From Acidimicrobiia bacterium (lineage in GTDB: Bacteria > Actinomycetota > Acidimicrobiia > Spongiisociales > ZC4RG35): DNA of 64,000 bases. The notes below the pieces were generated by a model. It made no database searches. It saw only the letters and a program-made list of their open reading frames with translations, and was not told where the DNA came from. This document shows positions 4,356 through 61,990 of this stretch, one piece after another; the stretch's first letter is position 1; each line of letters begins with the position of its first letter. Location of the stretch: positions 2,336,001 through 2,400,000 of the forward strand of contig OZ244034.1 of the NCBI GenBank assembly GCA_965215185.1. The letters run 5' to 3'. Made by a program: the position numbers and the translations under genes.

Positions 4356-4790
4356 GAGCCTGTATACATGTCTGTGTGAGGTGGGTTCTTTATTGCTGTG
4401 GCTGGTGTGAGAGCCGGTCCGAGAGGAGAGTGTTTTGATGCCTATTGAACATGATGTGACGGAGGCGGCTGTGGTGGCTGCTGGTGTGGTGTCTGATGAG
4501 GTGGTGGAGGCGGTGGTTTCGGACGCTGCTGCTGGTGGTGTGGACCTTCTGGGTCCTGATGGGGTGTTGGCTGAGTTGACGAAGCGGATTCTGGAACGTG
4601 CTTTGGCTGAGGAGATGACCGATCATCTGGGCTATGAGTCCGGTGATCCGATGGGTCATGGTACGGGTAAGAACCGTAACGGGTCCTCTCCCAAACAGGT
4701 GCTGACTAAAGATCGGCGCGGTGGATTTGGACATTCCACGGGACCGTAACGCTACGTTCGAACCGAGGATCGTTCCCAAGGGCGCCCGGC
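4356..4790 (+). mobile_element. IS256-family element: left end and 5' part of transposase (frameshifted)
   Basis: End GAGCCTGTATACATGTCTGTGTGAG; LLGPDGVLAELTKRILERALAEEMTDHLGY...RNG and DIPRDRNATFEPRIVPKG. Confidence 0.9.
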
Positions 4791-5230
4791 GCCGTAGCTG
4801 CCGGTGCCTTCCACCCCAACCCGCACCACACGACCCTGGGATCTCAACCAGCCGCCCAGTTCCTCAAAGCCGGTTGCATCGGCCGGGAACGGAGCGGTTC
4901 CCAGGACTCGACCGGCGGTGTCCACTACCGCCGCGACATGACAATCGCGATGGGTGTCCACCCCGCCAAACACCTCAACCAGGCTCTCTTTTTGTGACAT
5001 GAATGTCTTCTTCTTCCTTGGATAGACTCGCGGGTATCACCGGACCGGAAGCGGTGGACAGAACACTCATGATGGTGTGGAGAAGCAAGGCTCCTATAAG
5101 GTCACATCCGCTCCCGGGTCGGGGAGTGTCCCCAGGCCGAAAGCAGGCCGACAGATCATGATAAGGCACAAACGGCCAGTTTGTCAAGGGGTCAGACCCG
5201 CCCCGACCAGGGACCCCACCATTATCGAGT
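4783..5230 (-). mobile_element. IS110-family element C: left end, bridge-RNA region and recombinase N-terminus
   Basis: ORF from 5000: FGGVDTHRD...GVEGTGSYGAG; left end ACTCGATAAT at 5230; fused to IS256 through the microhomology cccggcgc. Confidence 0.85.
5045..5215 (-). ncRNA. Putative IS110-C bridge RNA (left target guide TTGACAAAC at 5187-5179, right target guide CATG, donor guides ATAGGAGC and GAGTG)
   Basis: Scaffold aligns with the A1 and A2 non-coding ends; variable segments fall at the guide positions; boundaries approximate. Confidence 0.75.
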
Positions 5231-5589
5231 GTTTTGCAAATCGCTTTTCGGGGGTGGGGGTTGTTTGAGCTTTTTGGTGGGGTGGTTTGGGGTTGGGGCG
5301 AGTTCTGGGGGTTTAGTGGGGGGTTTTCCAGTAGCCGGTAGAGGTGGCGGGCGATGTACCGTTTGAGGCAGCGTCGTGCTTCGCGGGTGGTTTTTCCTTG
5401 GCTGATGCGTTTGGCTATGTAGGCCTGGGTTTTGGGACAGTGGCGGGTGCGGGTGATGGCCATGTTGTGGAGCGCGCGGTTGAGTTGGCGGTCACCGCGT
5501 CGGTTGAGTCGGTGGCGGGTGCGTTGCCCTGAGGAGGCTTGGAGGGGTGCTACGCCGGCTAGCCGAGCGAAGGCGGCTTCGTTACGGCA

Positions 5590-5766
5590 GCGGCAGCGTC
5601 CGAAACCACCGCCTCCACCACCTCATCAGACACCACACCAGCAGCCACCACAGCCGCCTCCGTCACATCATGTTCAACAGGCATCACAACACTCTCCTTT
5701 CGGGCCGGCTCTCACACCAGCCACAGCAATAGAGAACCCACCTCACACAGACATGTATACAGGCTC
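5590..5766 (-). mobile_element. Second IS256 left-end fragment, inverted relative to the 4356 copy
   Basis: Reverse complement of roughly 4356-4530 with few differences. Confidence 0.9.
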
Positions 5767-6249
5767 GGTTTGAGCGCCTCGGCGGACGGTTTCCAGTACC
5801 CGCAGGGCTTCTCGGTCTCCCCGAGCGCGGGGAGCCGAAAGCCGGGAGCGTCCCAGCGCCTGGCGGGCGGCTCGTCGAGCGTCCAACGCGTCGGTTTTGG
5901 CGCCGTCGCGGGTCGGGTGGGGATGGCCGAACTCTATTACCCATTCACCAGCCTCAGAAAGGTAGTCGGTGACTCCTGCTCCGTAGCTACCGGTTCCTTC
6001 CACCACCCACGCTCGTTCCGCGGATGTGTGCTGGTTTGTCCACTCCAACAGTTGAGCATATCCCATGCTGGTTGTCCCAAAGCGCGCAGATGTCAACTCT
6101 CCGGTGGTGGCAGTGTCCACTACCGAAGCGGTGATCCAGTCACGGTCAGGGCCTATTCCTATCGTATGTTTTACCATCTCGGCTAGCATCGTATTTGTTC
6201 CTCTTTTCTGGTGTTACCGGTTAGAGCTGGCGTACCCCCGAGGAGCGGC

Positions 6250-6460
6250 AACCGTTACGGCAGACCTGTGATGGGTCACACCCATTTGGGTGGACAGGCT
6301 TCTGATCAGGCCAGCAACGAAGCACCCAGGCGGGCGCAGCGAAGGGTGTCGGACACATCGATTTGAAGACACGGACCGGTCGGTAAAGACAGAAACGGTC
6401 AGGGTTTTGGAGGGTCACGACACCACCGCTGCGCCTAGCCTGGCAGACTCTGAGAGCACC
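6250..6460 (-). ncRNA. Putative IS110-B2 bridge RNA (left target guide CCAAAACCC at 6410-6402, right target guide CAAATCGA at 6365-6358)
   Basis: Scaffold aligns with the B1 left end; donor guides AGAAGC and CACAG conserved; boundaries approximate. Confidence 0.78.
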
Positions 6461-6462
6461 CC

Positions 6463-7686
6463 CTACATACTCACAGGGTTTGGTGCGGTGAGCCATTGGT
6501 GGTATCGGGTGGCGAGTTGGTGGTTGTGGTAGAGGCCTCGTTCGAGTTGTGAGAGGCGGTTTGGGTGGGCGTGGACGGCTGTGGCGGCCTGAGCGAGAGT
6601 GGTCCGGGTTTTTTGGCGTAAACAGCGTAGATCGGCGCCGTTGGGTGTTGAGGGTGGGTCGGTCAACAGTCGGTAGACCTGGCGGGCGATGTGGCGTTTC
6701 AGACAGCGGATGATCTCTCGGCGGGTTTTGCCTTCCGCCCGGCGTTTTTCGACGTATTCGATGGTGGTCTGGTCGCAGCGCATCCGAGTGGTGGCGATCC
6801 GCCACAAAGCGTTGTTGGCTTGGCGGTCGCCACCGCGGTTGAGGCGATGGCGCACAGGTCCTGAGGATGCCTGGACGGGACTGGCGCCGCACAACGCCGC
6901 GAAGGAAGCTTCCGATCTCATGCGTTCGGGGTTGTCACCAGCTGCGACCAATAAGGCGGCGGCGGTGTCCGGGCCGATCCCTGTGGTGGCCAACAGCGCC
7001 GGGTTGGCCCGGGCGCAGAGATCTTTGATCCGGGTGTCGAGTTCTCCGATCTCTGCGGTGAGGGTCTGGTATCTGCGGGCCAAGAGACGGAGGACATGTT
7101 TGGCGTAGGTGATGGTGGTGTCACCATCACCCGGACGAAAACCGGCACAGACCTTCCCGCGGGCTTTGGGGGAGAGCCCCCGAAGTTGGTGTTTGACCTG
7201 GTCGGGAGCAGTGACCACCAGGGCGTGCAGCTGGTTGATGGCCTGGGTACGGGCCTTGATCGCCGAACGGTGGGCCACTGTCAGCATCCGTATTGCTTCT
7301 ACTGGTCCGTTCCCGCTTTTGGGCAACCCGGTGGCCTGCCCGTTCAAAGCAGCCCGCGCCGCTGCCCGGGCGTCTGTGACATCGGTCTTGCCGAAGCGGC
7401 GGCGTAACTGGCGGTTGGGCCGGTTCACTTCCACCACCTCAACACCAATGCTCATAAGGTGGCGGGTCAGGCCGGCGCCGTAGCTGCCGGTGCCCTCCAC
7501 CCCGACCCGCACAACACGACCCAGGGACCCCAACCAGTTGTTCAACCGTTCATAACCGGCGACATCGGCCCGAAACGGCGCCGAGCCAAGGACCCGACCG
7601 GTGGCATCCACCACCGCCGCGACATGGGTATCACGGTGGGTGTCGACCCCACCAAACACAATCCGATCATCCTCTGACATATGCAT
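6463..7686 (-). CDS. IS110 recombinase A1 with C-terminal XRE-type HTH extension
   Basis: DEDD residues (GVDTH, GVEGTG, KTDVTDA), ASSG serine, RHRLNRGGDRQAN; tail DLRCLRQKTRTTLAQAATAVHAHPNRLSQLERG; last codons come from the B2 end. Confidence 0.92.
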   Translation of the reverse strand: MHMSEDDRIVFGGVDTHRDTHVAAVVDATGRVLGSAPFRADVAGYERLNNWLGSLGRVVRVGVEGTGSYGAGLTRHLMSIGVEVVEVNRPNRQLRRRFGKTDVTDARAAARAALNGQATGLPKSGNGPVEAIRMLTVAHRSAIKARTQAINQLHALVVTAPDQVKHQLRGLSPKARGKVCAGFRPGDGDTTITYAKHVLRLLARRYQTLTAEIGELDTRIKDLCARANPALLATTGIGPDTAAALLVAAGDNPERMRSEASFAALCGASPVQASSGPVRHRLNRGGDRQANNALWRIATTRMRCDQTTIEYVEKRRAEGKTRREIIRCLKRHIARQVYRLLTDPPSTPNGADLRCLRQKTRTTLAQAATAVHAHPNRLSQLERGLYHNHQLATRYHQWLTAPNPVSM

Positions 7687-7753
7687 CTTCTCCTTCAAAG
7701 GTAGAATTCGTTTCTGTTCTCTCTGACCCGAAAAAACGGTGGACAGACCACTC

Positions 7754-9153
7754 TGTGAGTATTGGGGGGGCCTTGTAGAGGCTGCCAGGATTGGCGTCAG
7801 CGGTGGTGTCGTGACCCGAGACCACTCTGACCTTTGTGTCTTTGCCGTGATATGTCCGACACCGCCGCGACGCCCCTGGGCGTTCCGTTGCTGGCCTGAT
7901 CAGAAGCTTGTCCACCCATGGGGTGTGACTCATCACAGTCCTGCCGTCACGGTTTGCGCCTTGTGAGGCACTAGCCCAGTTCGCACAAGAAAGAGAAGGT
8001 TTCTTATGTTGGCCACAATGGTAGAGCATGTGATCGGGATCGATCCTGATCGTGACCGGGTCACCGCCGCGGTAGTAGACACTTCCACCACCGGAGAACA
8101 AGCGACTGCGGTGTTCGGAACCACCCGGCTGGGATATGACCGGTTGTTGAAATGGGCAGACCAGCACACTCAGACGGCTGAGCGGGTGTGGTCGGTGGAA
8201 GGCTCGGGCAGTTACGGAGCAGGCGTGACCACCTATCTCGCTGCCCGAGGTGAACTAGTGGTGGAGTTCAACGATCCCACCCCTACCCGCGACGGCGCCA
8301 AAACCGACGCACTGGACGCTCGGCGGGCCGCTCGCCAGGTGCTGGGCCGTCCTTGGCCATCTGTCCCGCGGGCTAGGGGAGACCGCGAAGCCTTGCGAGT
8401 GTTGGAGACCACCCGCCAGGGCGCCCAAGGGGCCAGAGTATCGGCCATCAACCAGCTAAAAGCCCTGGTAGTGACCGCGCCAGTCGATCTTCGGGACCAA
8501 CTCCGAGGTCTGAGCACAACTGCTCTGGTGGCCAAGTGCGCGGCGTTTCGAATCCGACCCGCCTCCGTCAACGAACTGACCGCCACCAAACAAGCCCTAC
8601 GTTCTACAGCCAGACGCATCCGCAACCTCAACAATGAAATAGCAGAGCTGAAAACGCCCATCGCCGAAATGGTCACAGCCGCAGCTCCGCAACTGCTCGA
8701 CCAATTCGGGATTGGTCCGGTCACCGCCGCCCAAGTGTTCATCGCCTGGTCCCACCCAGGCCGATGCCGCAACGAGGCCGCGTTCGCTCGCCTGGCCGGC
8801 GTAGCACCCCTCCAAGCCTCCTCTGGACAACAAACCCGCCACCGGCTAAGCCGCTACGGCGACCGCCAACTCAACCGCGCCCTCCACACCATCGCTATCA
8901 CCCGCGCTCGGGACTGCCCCAAAACCCGGGCCTACATCGCCAAACGCATCAGCCAAGGAAAAACCACCCGAGAAGCCCGCCGCTGCCTCAAACGGTACAT
9001 CGCCCGCCACCTCTACCGACTCCTACAAAACCCGCCCCCAACCCCGGCCGAACCAGCCCCACCGTTCCACTCGGAAACGCCGCAACACCCCCACAAGCTC
9101 AAACATCCTCAAATCCCCGCCAAAAGCCTCGATTTGGAGAACATAGAAGCATC
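7754..9153 (+). mobile_element. IS110-family element B1, apparently complete, TC core at both junctions
   Basis: ...AGACCACTC|TGTGAGTATT...CATAGAAGCATC|ACATGG; removing it restores the A-type non-coding end. Confidence 0.92.
7770..7960 (+). ncRNA. Putative IS110-B1 bridge RNA (left target guide AGACCACTC 7819-7827, right target guide GTGA 7847-7850, donor guides AGAAGC 7902-7907 and CACAG 7934-7938)
   Basis: All four guide segments match the observed target and the reconstructed circle junction; boundaries approximate. Confidence 0.85.
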
Positions 9154-9292
9154 ACATGGCAAGAGCAAGGCTCCTATCAGGTCACAGCCGCCCTGTCGGG
9201 AGAGCACCGCCCCCAGGCCGGAAGCAGGCCGACAGATCACCACAAAGGCACAACAGCCAGGTCGGAGTCGAGTCAGACCCGCCCCGGCCTAG
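8006..9292 (+). CDS. IS110 recombinase B1 (ORF reads through the right end into flanking DNA)
   Basis: GIDPDRD, VEGSGSYG, KTDALDA, APLQASSG, RHRLSRYGDRQLNRAL. Confidence 0.92.
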   Translation: MLATMVEHVIGIDPDRDRVTAAVVDTSTTGEQATAVFGTTRLGYDRLLKWADQHTQTAERVWSVEGSGSYGAGVTTYLAARGELVVEFNDPTPTRDGAKTDALDARRAARQVLGRPWPSVPRARGDREALRVLETTRQGAQGARVSAINQLKALVVTAPVDLRDQLRGLSTTALVAKCAAFRIRPASVNELTATKQALRSTARRIRNLNNEIAELKTPIAEMVTAAAPQLLDQFGIGPVTAAQVFIAWSHPGRCRNEAAFARLAGVAPLQASSGQQTRHRLSRYGDRQLNRALHTIAITRARDCPKTRAYIAKRISQGKTTREARRCLKRYIARHLYRLLQNPPPTPAEPAPPFHSETPQHPHKLKHPQIPAKSLDLENIEASHGKSKAPIRSQPPCRESTAPRPEAGRQITTKAQQPGRSRVRPAPA

Positions 9293-9300
9293 GGGCACCT
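9154..9300 (-). ncRNA. 5' part of the putative A1 bridge RNA (left target guide TCGACTCCGACC at 9271-9260, right target guide GGTG); continues at 7753-7735
   Basis: Near-identical scaffold to 61855-61990 with different guide segments. Confidence 0.8.
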
Positions 9301-9312
9301 ATAAGTATGAGT

Positions 9313-9845
9313 GGTTGGAGTCGACGTGGACGGGCGTAAACATGTGCTGGGGGTATGGCTGGGCGACGGCGGTGAAGGCGCCAAATACTGGTTGTCGGTA
9401 CTTACCGAGATACGCAACCGAGGCCTCGAAGACGCGCTGATCGTGTGCTGTGACGGCCTGAAAGGGCTCCCGGACGCGATCGAGGCGACATGGCCCCAGG
9501 CGCTGGTGCAGACCTGTGTGATCCACCTGCTGCGAGCCTCTATGCGGCTCTGCAGTTGGAAAGACCGAAAAACCATTGTGGCGGGCTTGCGACGCGTTTA
9601 CACCGCGGTAAACGCCGAAGCCGCTGTTGAGGCGTTGGACGAGCTCGAGGAACAATGGGGAAATCACTATCCCGGCGTTATACGAATATGGCGCCAGGCG
9701 TGGGAAGAGTTCACCCCGTTCCTGCGGTTCCCGCCAGAGCTTCGCAAGGTCGTGTACACAACCAACGTCGTCGAAAGCGTCCACTATCAACTACGGAAAG
9801 TCACCAAAACCAGGGGGCATTTCCCCACCGACCAATCCGCCCTCG
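9313..9845 (+). mobile_element. IS256-family transposase middle/C-terminal fragment (continuation of the 4356 element)
   Basis: VGVDVDGRKHVLGVW...CCDGLKGLPDAI...QTCVIHLLR...YTTNVVES...RGHFPTDQSAL. Confidence 0.9.
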
Positions 9846-9989
9846 CACTTGGATCGCGCCTCGCCCAACAGCATCCAAATGCTGGGGCCGAGCGAGTTGA
9901 TATCGGTGGCCTTGAAAGTGATCCACGGGTGGGACTTCAGATAGGAGCGCACAAGTGCCGCTCTACTATCGGTATATTGTTTTGACCAT
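9846..9989 (-). pseudogene. Short N-terminal remnant resembling a Fic-family protein
   Basis: YLKSHPWITF...IWMLLGEARSKCE, recalled as a Fic-family N-terminus; no Fic motif left. Confidence 0.5.
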
Positions 9990-60510: not shown

Positions 60511-61772
60511 TCAAATCGAGTTTTGGTGGGGTGTGAGGGCGGTGAGCCATTGGTGGTATTGGGTGGCGAGTTGATGGTTGTGGTAGATGCCTCGCTCGAG
60601 TTGTGAGAGGCGTACTGGGTAGGTTTGTAGGGCTGTGGCGGCGTGGGTGAGGGTTGTTAGCGCGTTTTTGCGTAGACAGCGAAGATGGGCGCCGTTGGGA
60701 GTTTCGGGTGGATTGGTGAGCAGGTGGTAGATCTGGCGGGCGATGTGGCGTTTCAGGCAGCGGATGATCTCCCGGCGGTTTTTGCCTTCTGTTTGTCTTT
60801 TTTGGGCGTAGGCGATGGTGGTCTGGTCGTAGCGCATGCGGGTGATGGCGATCCGCCACAGGGCATTGTTGGCTTGGCGGTTGCCGCCCCGGTTGAGACG
60901 GTGGCGTATGGTCCGTCCCGACGACGCCTGGACGGGACTGGCGCCGCACAATGCTGCGAAGGACGCTTCCGATTGCATGCGTTCGGGGTTGTCACCAGCG
61001 GTGACCAACAGGGCAGCGGCGGTGTCGGCGCCGACTCCGGAGGCGGCTAACAGCGCCGGTGTCGGCGCCGACTCCGGAGGCGGCTAACAGCGCCTGGGCG
61101 CAGAGATGGTTGATCTGGGTGGTGAGCTCTTCGATCTCGGCGGTGAGCGCCTGATATCGGCGGGCCAGGGAACGCAGCGCCTTTTTGGCGTAGGTGACGG
61201 TGATGGTGGCTGTTCGGGGACGGAAACCGGCGCAGGCCTTGACGCGGGCTTTGGCCGGCAGTCCCCCCAGTTGGTGTTTGACCTGGTCGGGGGCGGTTAC
61301 CACCAAAGCGTGCAGCTGGTTTATGGCCTGGGTGCGGGCTTTGGTCGCCGAACGGCGGGCCACCGAAAGCATCCGTATTGCTTCCACCCGACCGTTGCCG
61401 CTTTTGGGCACCGCAGTGGCCTGTCCGTTGAGAACCGCCCGTGCCGCTCCTTGGGCGTCGGTGGCGTCGGTCTTGCCCAACCGGCGGCGCAACTGCCGGT
61501 TGGGACGGTTCACCTCTGTCACCTCGACACCGGCCTCGGTTAGATAACGGGCCAGGCCGGCGCCGTAACTGCCCGTGCCCTCTATACCGACCCGGACCAC
61601 TCGACCGTGTGACCCCAACCAGTCGCCCAGTTGCTGATAACCGGCCTGCATCGGCCACGAAGGAGGCTGTTCCCAAGACCCGACCGGTGCTGTCCACCAC
61701 CACCGCCATATGAACATCCCGGTGGGTGTCCACCCCACCAAACACAATCCGATCATCCTTTGACATATGCAT
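60511..61772 (-). pseudogene. IS110 recombinase A2 with C-terminal HTH; frameshift near 61650 and a 37-bp duplication
   Basis: Three frames homologous to A1; tandem 37-mer at 61021-61057 and 61058-61094. Confidence 0.9.
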
Positions 61773-61809: not shown

Positions 61810-61990
61810 ACTGACCCGAAAAAGCGGTGGACAGACCACTCAGAATGAGGGAGAAGCAAAGCTCCTATCAGGTCACAGCCGCTCTGTCGGGAGAGCACCG
61901 CCCCCAGACCGAAGGCGGGCCGACAGATCGACTCAAAGGCACAATCGGCCAGGTAGCTGTCGGGTCAGACCCGCCCCGGCCTGGGGGCAC
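61810..61990 (-). ncRNA. Putative IS110-A2 bridge RNA (left target guide GACAGCTACC at 61961-61952, right target guide GTCG, donor guides ATAGGAGC and TGAGTG)
   Basis: Guides match the flanks GACAGCTAACC|GAC and the circle junction ATAGGAGCATC|ACTCA; boundaries approximate. Confidence 0.82.

Follow-up and report, generated by a model that had tools for sequence, protein, structure and literature searches.

An IS110-group element that was probably guided into the donor-guide DNA of an unrelated IS110 lineage in an Acidimicrobiia bacterium

RNA-guided insertion sequences choose where they land through short guides, and in this work we describe an element whose guides point at the guide-coding DNA of another such element. 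The element, B1, belongs to the IS110 group, measures 1400 nucleotides (nt) and lies at positions 7754-9153 (+ strand) of a 64,000-nt stretch of DNA from an Acidimicrobiia bacterium. This stretch, which we call the window and whose numbering is used throughout unless genome positions are given, corresponds to positions 2336001-2400000 of a single-contig genome (G000; 3.12 Mb, 60.7% G+C). Our reading is that B1 is an IS621-like element that was directed by the guides of its own bridge RNA into the guide-coding DNA of A1, a member of an unrelated IS110 lineage (lineage A), and that this site is the cognate target of the clade of B-family elements with CACTC guides to which B1 belongs. We put the probability of this reading at close to nine in ten. 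It is carried by the covarying structure of the predicted RNA, by the matching of many different B-family guides to their own flanks, and by the repeated occurrence of CACTC-clade elements at one and the same A position in several genera.

Results

The ends of B1 were placed with the help of a twin copy, 99% identical, at genome positions 1665808-1667204 inside unrelated unique gene sequence. Because homology between the two copies stops at 7754 and at 9153, bar a few flanking bases due to a shared target motif, we take these positions as the element's ends, and they are further backed by eight other right ends. B1 starts with TGTGAG and ends with the second copy of a core dinucleotide, TC, which flanks the element on both sides (7752-7753 and 9152-9153). 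The recombinase open reading frame (ORF; 8006-9292, + strand, 428 aa) carries the Pfam domains PF01548 (E 7.2e-13) and PF02371 (E 1.1e-18), scores 172.1 bits against the NCBIfam model NF033542 'IS110 family RNA-guided transposase' (cut-off 140), and aligns over parts of the protein with the solved transposases of ISCro4 (9t56, E 1e-10) and IS621 (8wt6, E 3.9e-9). Residues D13, E65, D101, D104 and S273, which we take to be the catalytic DEDD/Ser positions, fall in blocks conserved with these two proteins. The ORF overruns the right end of the element and finds its stop codon 139 nt inside A1; since it runs through the right end, B1 has no non-coding right end. In the twin a 1-nt deletion at element position 1030 shifts the frame ahead of the Ser motif, which means that B1 alone represents its subfamily in intact form in this genome. 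B1 is thus, so far as sequence can tell, a member of the IS110 group whose DEDD/Ser recombinase gene is apparently intact, and it shows every defining feature of the group that a sequence allows one to look for. Membership of the IS1111 group was considered and rejected, as it would call for a guide RNA in a long right end and for long subterminal inverted repeats, and the guides of B1 are in its left end.

The left end of B1 (252 nt) folds more stably than its shuffles (-108.4 kcal/mol, z -2.69). The minimum free energy fold of the single sequence, the consensus fold of eight copies from G000 and the consensus fold of 23 distinct left ends (from G000 and other genomes) all agree on two internal loops, the first of which is closed by a long stem and holds a 9-nt word that repeats the left flank of the element. 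This target-binding loop (7793-7874, + strand, as for all parts of the predicted RNA) has its closing stem at 7793-7815/7854-7874 and a small 3-bp hairpin at its top (7829-7840), and its two arms carry the 9-mer on the 5' side and GTGA on the 3' side. The 9-mer is the predicted left target guide (7819-7827, core included); it is identical at 9/9 positions to 7745-7753, and its column covaries with the left flanks. The right target guide, 7 nt long in its extended form, lies at 7844-7850, and its last four nucleotides (7847-7850, GTGA) pair with TCAC at 9152-9155, which comprises the right core copy and the first 2 nt of the right target. The second, donor-binding loop (7893-7945) was likewise recovered by the folds and bears a conserved hairpin at its top (7910-7929). 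Its left donor guide (7901-7909) has six contiguous nucleotides plus one identical to the right end of B1, and its right donor guide (7930-7937) complements the opening 5-6 nt of the left end. The donor guides were assigned by identity alone, in columns that are invariant across the B family and so make a covariation test impossible.

Across the 23 sequences the structure is well conserved, with 97.2% of cells paired compared with 36-53% in slid-partner controls. It also contains 33 double-change cells as against 10.6 in shuffles (0 of 500 reach 33), and compensatory change is found in eight of its pairs. RNAalifold additionally paired the first 5 nt of the element with the right donor guide in 23/23 sequences; we took this pairing as complementarity between guide and donor and not as part of the RNA structure. 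A search of Rfam with the B1 left end returned no matching family, either at gathering scores (tRNA only) or at E values up to 1, meaning only that none has been curated. In other families of the order, loci L111-L118 and L123-L126 share with B1 only the 60-70 nt scaffold of the donor loop (80-89% identity) and are without the B-type target-loop motif, which suggests that loop modules evolve at unequal rates or are exchanged.

At its own site B1 is matched by its guides at 9/9 positions on the left and 4/4 on the right (the core plus 2 nt). The left target consists of 7 nt and the core TC (7745-7753, + strand), as defined by the sequence and by its position in the alignments of A elements. Counting both strands, the 9-mer occurs 39 times in the 3.12 Mb of the genome, three of these occurrences being A-loop sites, and the 11-mer target has no second occurrence in the genome. 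To judge the match more widely we compared left guide and left flank at 28 distinct B-family junctions, for which the mean was 7.18/9 compared with 2.51/9 in 556 mismatched pairings; at least 7/9 was reached at 22 of the 28 junctions versus 0.18% of the mismatched pairings. The low scores of L059 and L064, which resemble 1-nt register shifts, were kept in these means. Guides that differ from one another (ending ATTTGAC, CAACAACG and CCCACTC) each adjoin the corresponding flank. On the other side, the reverse complement of the right guide is found at 11 of the 18 right junctions, where 3-6 contiguous nt pair beyond the core. With 39 copies of the 9-mer, a unique 11-mer and a match that lies in the very column that tracks the flanks of relatives, we consider chance an unlikely source of the B1 guide match.

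Copies of the B1 type (99-100% identical) are known from three sites, which have their last 6 nt in common. The site of the twin matches at 8/9 positions on the left and 6/7 on the right, and the third site, marked by a 65-nt fragment that is 100% identical to the B1 left end over 65 nt, matches at 7/9. Taken with the match of B1 itself, these sites argue that B1-type copies insert where the guide points while tolerating one or two mismatches. In B-family relatives the core copy at the left junction tracks both the target and the left guide (TC, AC, CC or GC). At the right end, 17 of the 18 copies found are TC and the remaining one is TT, and TC is what every right guide reads. Donor and target thus need not have the same first core base in these lineages. 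B-family left ends turned up in 11 of the 16 further genomes from the genus and in a single genome from a different family (60 relatives searched), and at the level of the order in 18 of 401 genomes, G000 included.

The DNA into which B1 is inserted belongs to A1, which reads on the - strand and whose left end spans 9312 down to 7699, interrupted by B1. In the proximal part (6463-7753), the last 55 nt of the left end (7699-7753) precede the recombinase ORF (6463-7698, 411 aa), which was recognized by domain and family models and passes NF033542 at 193.5 bits. The distal part of the left end (9154-9312) contains the start of the element (9312), the left guide of the target loop (9260-9269) and the left donor guide (9170-9177). 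Left ends of A elements, aligned in sets of 8 and of 19 sequences, show the same two-loop plan as those of the B family. Variation in the left guide, which lies near the 5' end, follows that of the left flank (24 junctions, mean 6.1/9 versus 4.0; at least 7 in 11/24 versus 1.3%, several of the low scores being 1-nt register shifts), and the left donor guide is identical to the A right end. The second loop has GAGTG on its 3' side in all 19 sequences, just 5' of the closing stem (4 nt before it); this word is complementary to ACTC at the start of the A element, itself invariant in 19/19. The next 2-3 nt after GAGTG track the bases that precede the element start, being of the AC type in A_1097, A_2341 and L097 and CC in most others, with A_1098 and L077 as exceptions. 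At A junctions the left side is CC or AC, and every right end closes with TC. The closing stem of this second loop is paired in 94.5% of cells versus 44-53% in slid controls. An RNAalifold hairpin that would sequester the left donor guide was not adopted, as it shows no compensatory change and would hide the guide.

On this predicted fold, the left target of B1 is the antisense of the 3' part of the A1 right donor guide together with the 3 nt abutting the closing stem of the donor-binding loop, and the B1 crossover point splits this guide and hence the A1 bridge RNA. Much of this had been proposed in an earlier note made from the letters of the DNA, and its strings and positions (the 9-mer shared by 7745-7753 and 7819-7827, GTGA at 7847-7850, TCAC at 9152-9155 and the A2 site at 61833-61843) were reproduced exactly. 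Its reading of the 9-mer and GTGA as guides is borne out, the two lying on either side of the first internal loop in the geometry of IS621; the note had named the folding of the 9-mer into a stem as the outcome that would speak against this, and both the folds and the 23-sequence counts put the 9-mer in an internal loop. The claim that the target is the A1 right donor guide plus scaffold likewise agrees with the 19 of 19 A left ends in which GAGTG is complementary to the element start, and the statement that B1 is the only intact element holds, the twin being frame-shifted and both A1 and A2 being damaged.

A2 is a second A element in the window with an unoccupied site homologous to the one taken by B1 (61833-61843, + strand), at which the left guide of B1 matches 9/9 and the right guide only the core plus 1 nt. 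The A2 recombinase gene has a direct tandem duplication of ~37 nt (about 61021-61094) and is split into three frames, so that A2 is dead though its bridge-RNA region is whole.

The position struck in A1 is not peculiar to it. In the CACTC-guide clade, 6 of 13 distinct junctions lie at the same A position, always in antisense orientation, in four genomes belonging to three genera. These are B1 (left-guide match 9/9) and B_1324 (7/9) in G000, L046 (9/9) in G003, L048 (7/9) in G045, which represents another family, and L107 (8/9) and L121 (9/9) in G208. A seventh junction of the clade, L047 in G016 (9/9), lies elsewhere within an A left end, and all four 9/9 matches of the clade fall in A left ends. 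The guides in G208 and G045, which end in AACACTC, have AA where B1 has AC, and the donor guides of their hosts carry the matching change, exactly so in L121. The A host in G003 is of another A sublineage than A1. As the flanks were typed against six G000 reference elements only, the 9 of 28 B-family junctions that were placed in IS110 sequence are a lower bound; a hit in L069, 115 nt from the junction, was left uncounted.

Metagenome contigs, one in each of three runs from three studies, join position 7751 to 9152 and thereby skip exactly 1400 nt, and other metagenome contigs span the left junction of B1 with ~7% differences. The former indicate that an uninterrupted form of the site exists, which is not proof that B1 excises. 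The exact empty A1 site was found neither in the genome nor in any retrieved locus.

By a hand tally, about 10 of the 21 A- and B-family junctions in G000 lie within other IS110 elements, whose share of the genome is no more than a few percent. Several such cases concern recombinase genes. A_979 and A_373 (genome positions 978458-981097 and 373074-375225) lie within B-type recombinase genes, at the stretch encoding a conserved GDRQLN motif, with left-guide matches of 9/9, and B1 itself carries a perfect and unoccupied match to the left guide of that A type at its own GDRQLN site (8868-8876). Conversely, B_373 (genome 371769-373084) and L049 (G007) have entered A-type recombinase genes where these encode the equivalent GDRQANNA motif, their guides matching at 7/9 and 8/9; the homologous site in A1 lies at window positions 6809-6819. 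Right ends of either lineage are also occupied by the other (A_1097, A_2341, B_2342 and the ATTTGAC-guide clade), and the ATTTGAC-guide B clade (genome 978243-981110; L051-L068) sits in or beside IS110 right ends. B_981 has the same 8-nt word on both sides of the element, after the right end of another element, and resembles a tandem unit more than a simple insertion.

Around A1 the nesting goes further. A1 went into part of an IS256-family transposase gene, which makes up its outer flank (9311-9985; profile positions 147-333 of 338), and the locus therefore reads as three layers, first IS256, then A1, then B1. At the other extremity the left end of a degraded B-family element, B_2342 (6187-6475, - strand), is inserted in the 3' end of A1, ~23 nt before the expected A right end, which accounts for the displacement of the right end of A1. 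The region 4700-6475 (- strand) is a nested chain of IS110 elements, in which a further A-type element (left end near 5212) breaks up the right end of B_2342, with additional fragments after it.

Discussion

We propose that B1 works in the manner of IS621. Its 252-nt left end would encode a bridge RNA with two internal loops, the second of which would guide the element's own joined ends, and the DEDD/Ser recombinase would exchange strands at the core TC. B1 would thus have entered a site specified by its guides, namely the antisense DNA for the 3' side of the unrelated lineage A's donor-binding loop, and its insertion would have split the A1 bridge RNA. The A site would be the cognate target of the whole CACTC-guide clade, with the insertions outside IS110 as near-cognate off-targets. 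The B1 RNA is presumably made and the recombinase presumably active. The choice of A's guide-coding DNA may further be an evolved habit, one that would give the clade a neutral landing site which A must partly conserve, and on such an evolved preference we find the case about evenly balanced.

Several observations weigh against the proposal. Among the sequencing runs listed for this DNA, none was of RNA. A promoter and terminator scan of 7600-9400 found nothing, for which the consensus used may not fit this organism, and no junction of abutted B1 ends, as expected of a circle or tandem, was found in the genome or the retrieved loci, all of which are assemblies. The right side of the B1 site agrees with the guide for only 2 nt beyond the core, or 4/7 of the extended guide at 7844-7850, which would favour three further bases that are missing from the A1 site. 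The closing stem of the second A loop shows weak covariation, three double-change pairs being reached by 143 of 500 shuffles, and its support comes from conservation. In the metagenome contigs with the empty site the shorter side is just 24-28 nt long, so they may stem from paralogues or other strains. Finally, 6 of the 13 junctions of the CACTC clade (B_1667, B_375, B_860, B_2697, L058 and L045), a set that includes the twin of B1, lie outside IS110 sequence, and the A site is consequently not obligatory for the clade. The matches at these six are all imperfect (5 to 8 of 9).

The last of these points, the poor fit of the right guide to the A1 site and the small share of A-loop sites among the genomic copies of the 9-mer (3/39) are what lend some credit to the most serious alternative. 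Under it insertion would be guide-directed, and the link with the A bridge RNA would be incidental, the guide simply matching a short word in a multi-copy element with no adaptation to A. We regard this as unlikely, if not negligibly so, since it has to account for an identical A position being struck in four genomes and three genera in A hosts of different sublineages, for guide variants that match the variants of their hosts, for the confinement of all four perfect matches to A left ends, and for the placement of about 10 of 21 A and B junctions of G000 inside other IS110 elements that occupy so little of the genome.

Alternatively, insertion of B into A could have happened once and the pair could have spread as a composite, making the repeated junctions mere copies of one another. 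Intact A ends would allow such a composite to be moved in trans by another A copy, and the B_1324/A_1324 pair in G000 is of the same sublineages as B1/A1 and has diverged to a similar extent in both parts (~85%). Yet the two G208 copies of B agree in 1375 of 1380 columns (99.6%) and their A hosts are only 61% and 66% identical in the flanks; near-identical B copies in such diverged hosts argue for two recent and separate insertions. Furthermore, B1 and the G003 copy are 78.5% identical and lie in hosts of different sublineages that are 67% identical, and both A sublineages are also found without B. A composite origin is accordingly improbable. Least credible of all is that the identity between 7819-7827 and the flank is a picked-up copy of the flank or a chance repeat, for while a lone 9-nt repeat within 75 nt may arise by chance or slippage, the same column, in a conserved internal loop, fits different flanks at 22 of 28 junctions, and the right guide relates to its target by reverse complement, as that of a bridge RNA should.

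Returning to guided insertion at a cognate A site, a stronger version of the proposal would hold that the CACTC-guide clade is a specialised parasite of A whose guide co-evolves with the right-donor-guide DNA of A, and that the IS110 lineages of this order form a network in which each targets conserved functional sequences of the others (the donor guide, the right end, and the GDRQ-N codons, which follow the catalytic Ser by ~11 residues). We hold this version tentatively, at slightly less than even odds. One part of it, that A is unable to lose the targeted sequence without changing its own left end, is only partly right. The earlier note had likewise called the site a constrained target, which stands for five of the nine targeted positions and for the first tetranucleotide of A, all invariant, and fails for the other four, which vary and with which the B guides vary along. 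Given that four of nine targeted positions vary among A copies, A can drift and the B guides seem to follow. The version of the site that is perfect for B1 is present in 8 of the 20 intact A loops listed.

Relation to known systems and implications

B1 has in common with IS621 of E. coli and ISCro4 (IS622) a DEDD and Ser recombinase, an RNA in the left end, target and donor loops, and a core dinucleotide on both sides. IS621 naturally targets repetitive extragenic palindromic (REP) sequences. It differs from B1 in its core (CT in IS621, TC in B1) and shows low protein similarity to it, and the natural target of B1 is not REP but the guide-coding DNA of another IS110 element. In the wider IS110 family, IS4321/IS5075 and the IS1111-attC group target conserved functional sequences of other mobile elements. 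These are IS1111-group elements, which carry the RNA in the right end and have long subterminal repeats, and their targets are transposon ends or attC sites, whereas that of B1 is the bridge-RNA gene of a sister IS110.

The geometry described for IS621 (PMC11208160) has a left guide of 9 nt and a right guide of 4 nt (longer in some orthologues), both including the core, and an 11-nt target. Expanded IS110 loci have been described as arising by repeated insertion into occupied loci, with no target immunity and with tandem units (bioRxiv 10.64898/2026.08.14.744561; 10.64898/2026.08.31.748434). In the portions of these two preprints that we drew upon, growth proceeds via donor half-matches of the resident element itself, and targeting of one lineage's donor guide by another lineage is not among the cases described. 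A search of the full-text literature gave no report of an IS110 target guide aimed at the donor guide of another IS110, with the proviso that the supplementary target tables of PMC11208160, which fell outside that search, may hold cases. The novelty is therefore a new class of target, and the mechanism is of the known IS621 kind.

B1 and its relatives supply a natural example in which the guide-RNA gene of one RNA-guided transposon is what another is programmed to hit; the events recur independently, and the guide variants match. The B family provides ~30 natural guide-target pairs, several of them with reprogrammed guides, as a data set for pairing rules in a GC-rich host (60.7% G+C) and far from IS621, and B1 itself is an apparently intact candidate for a programmable recombinase. 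The finding bears on how bridge-RNA elements pick harmless targets and compete in genomes rich in insertion sequences. If the parasite reading is true, sister elements would serve RNA-guided transposons as safe landing sites that can be renewed, and rivals would be disabled in passing.

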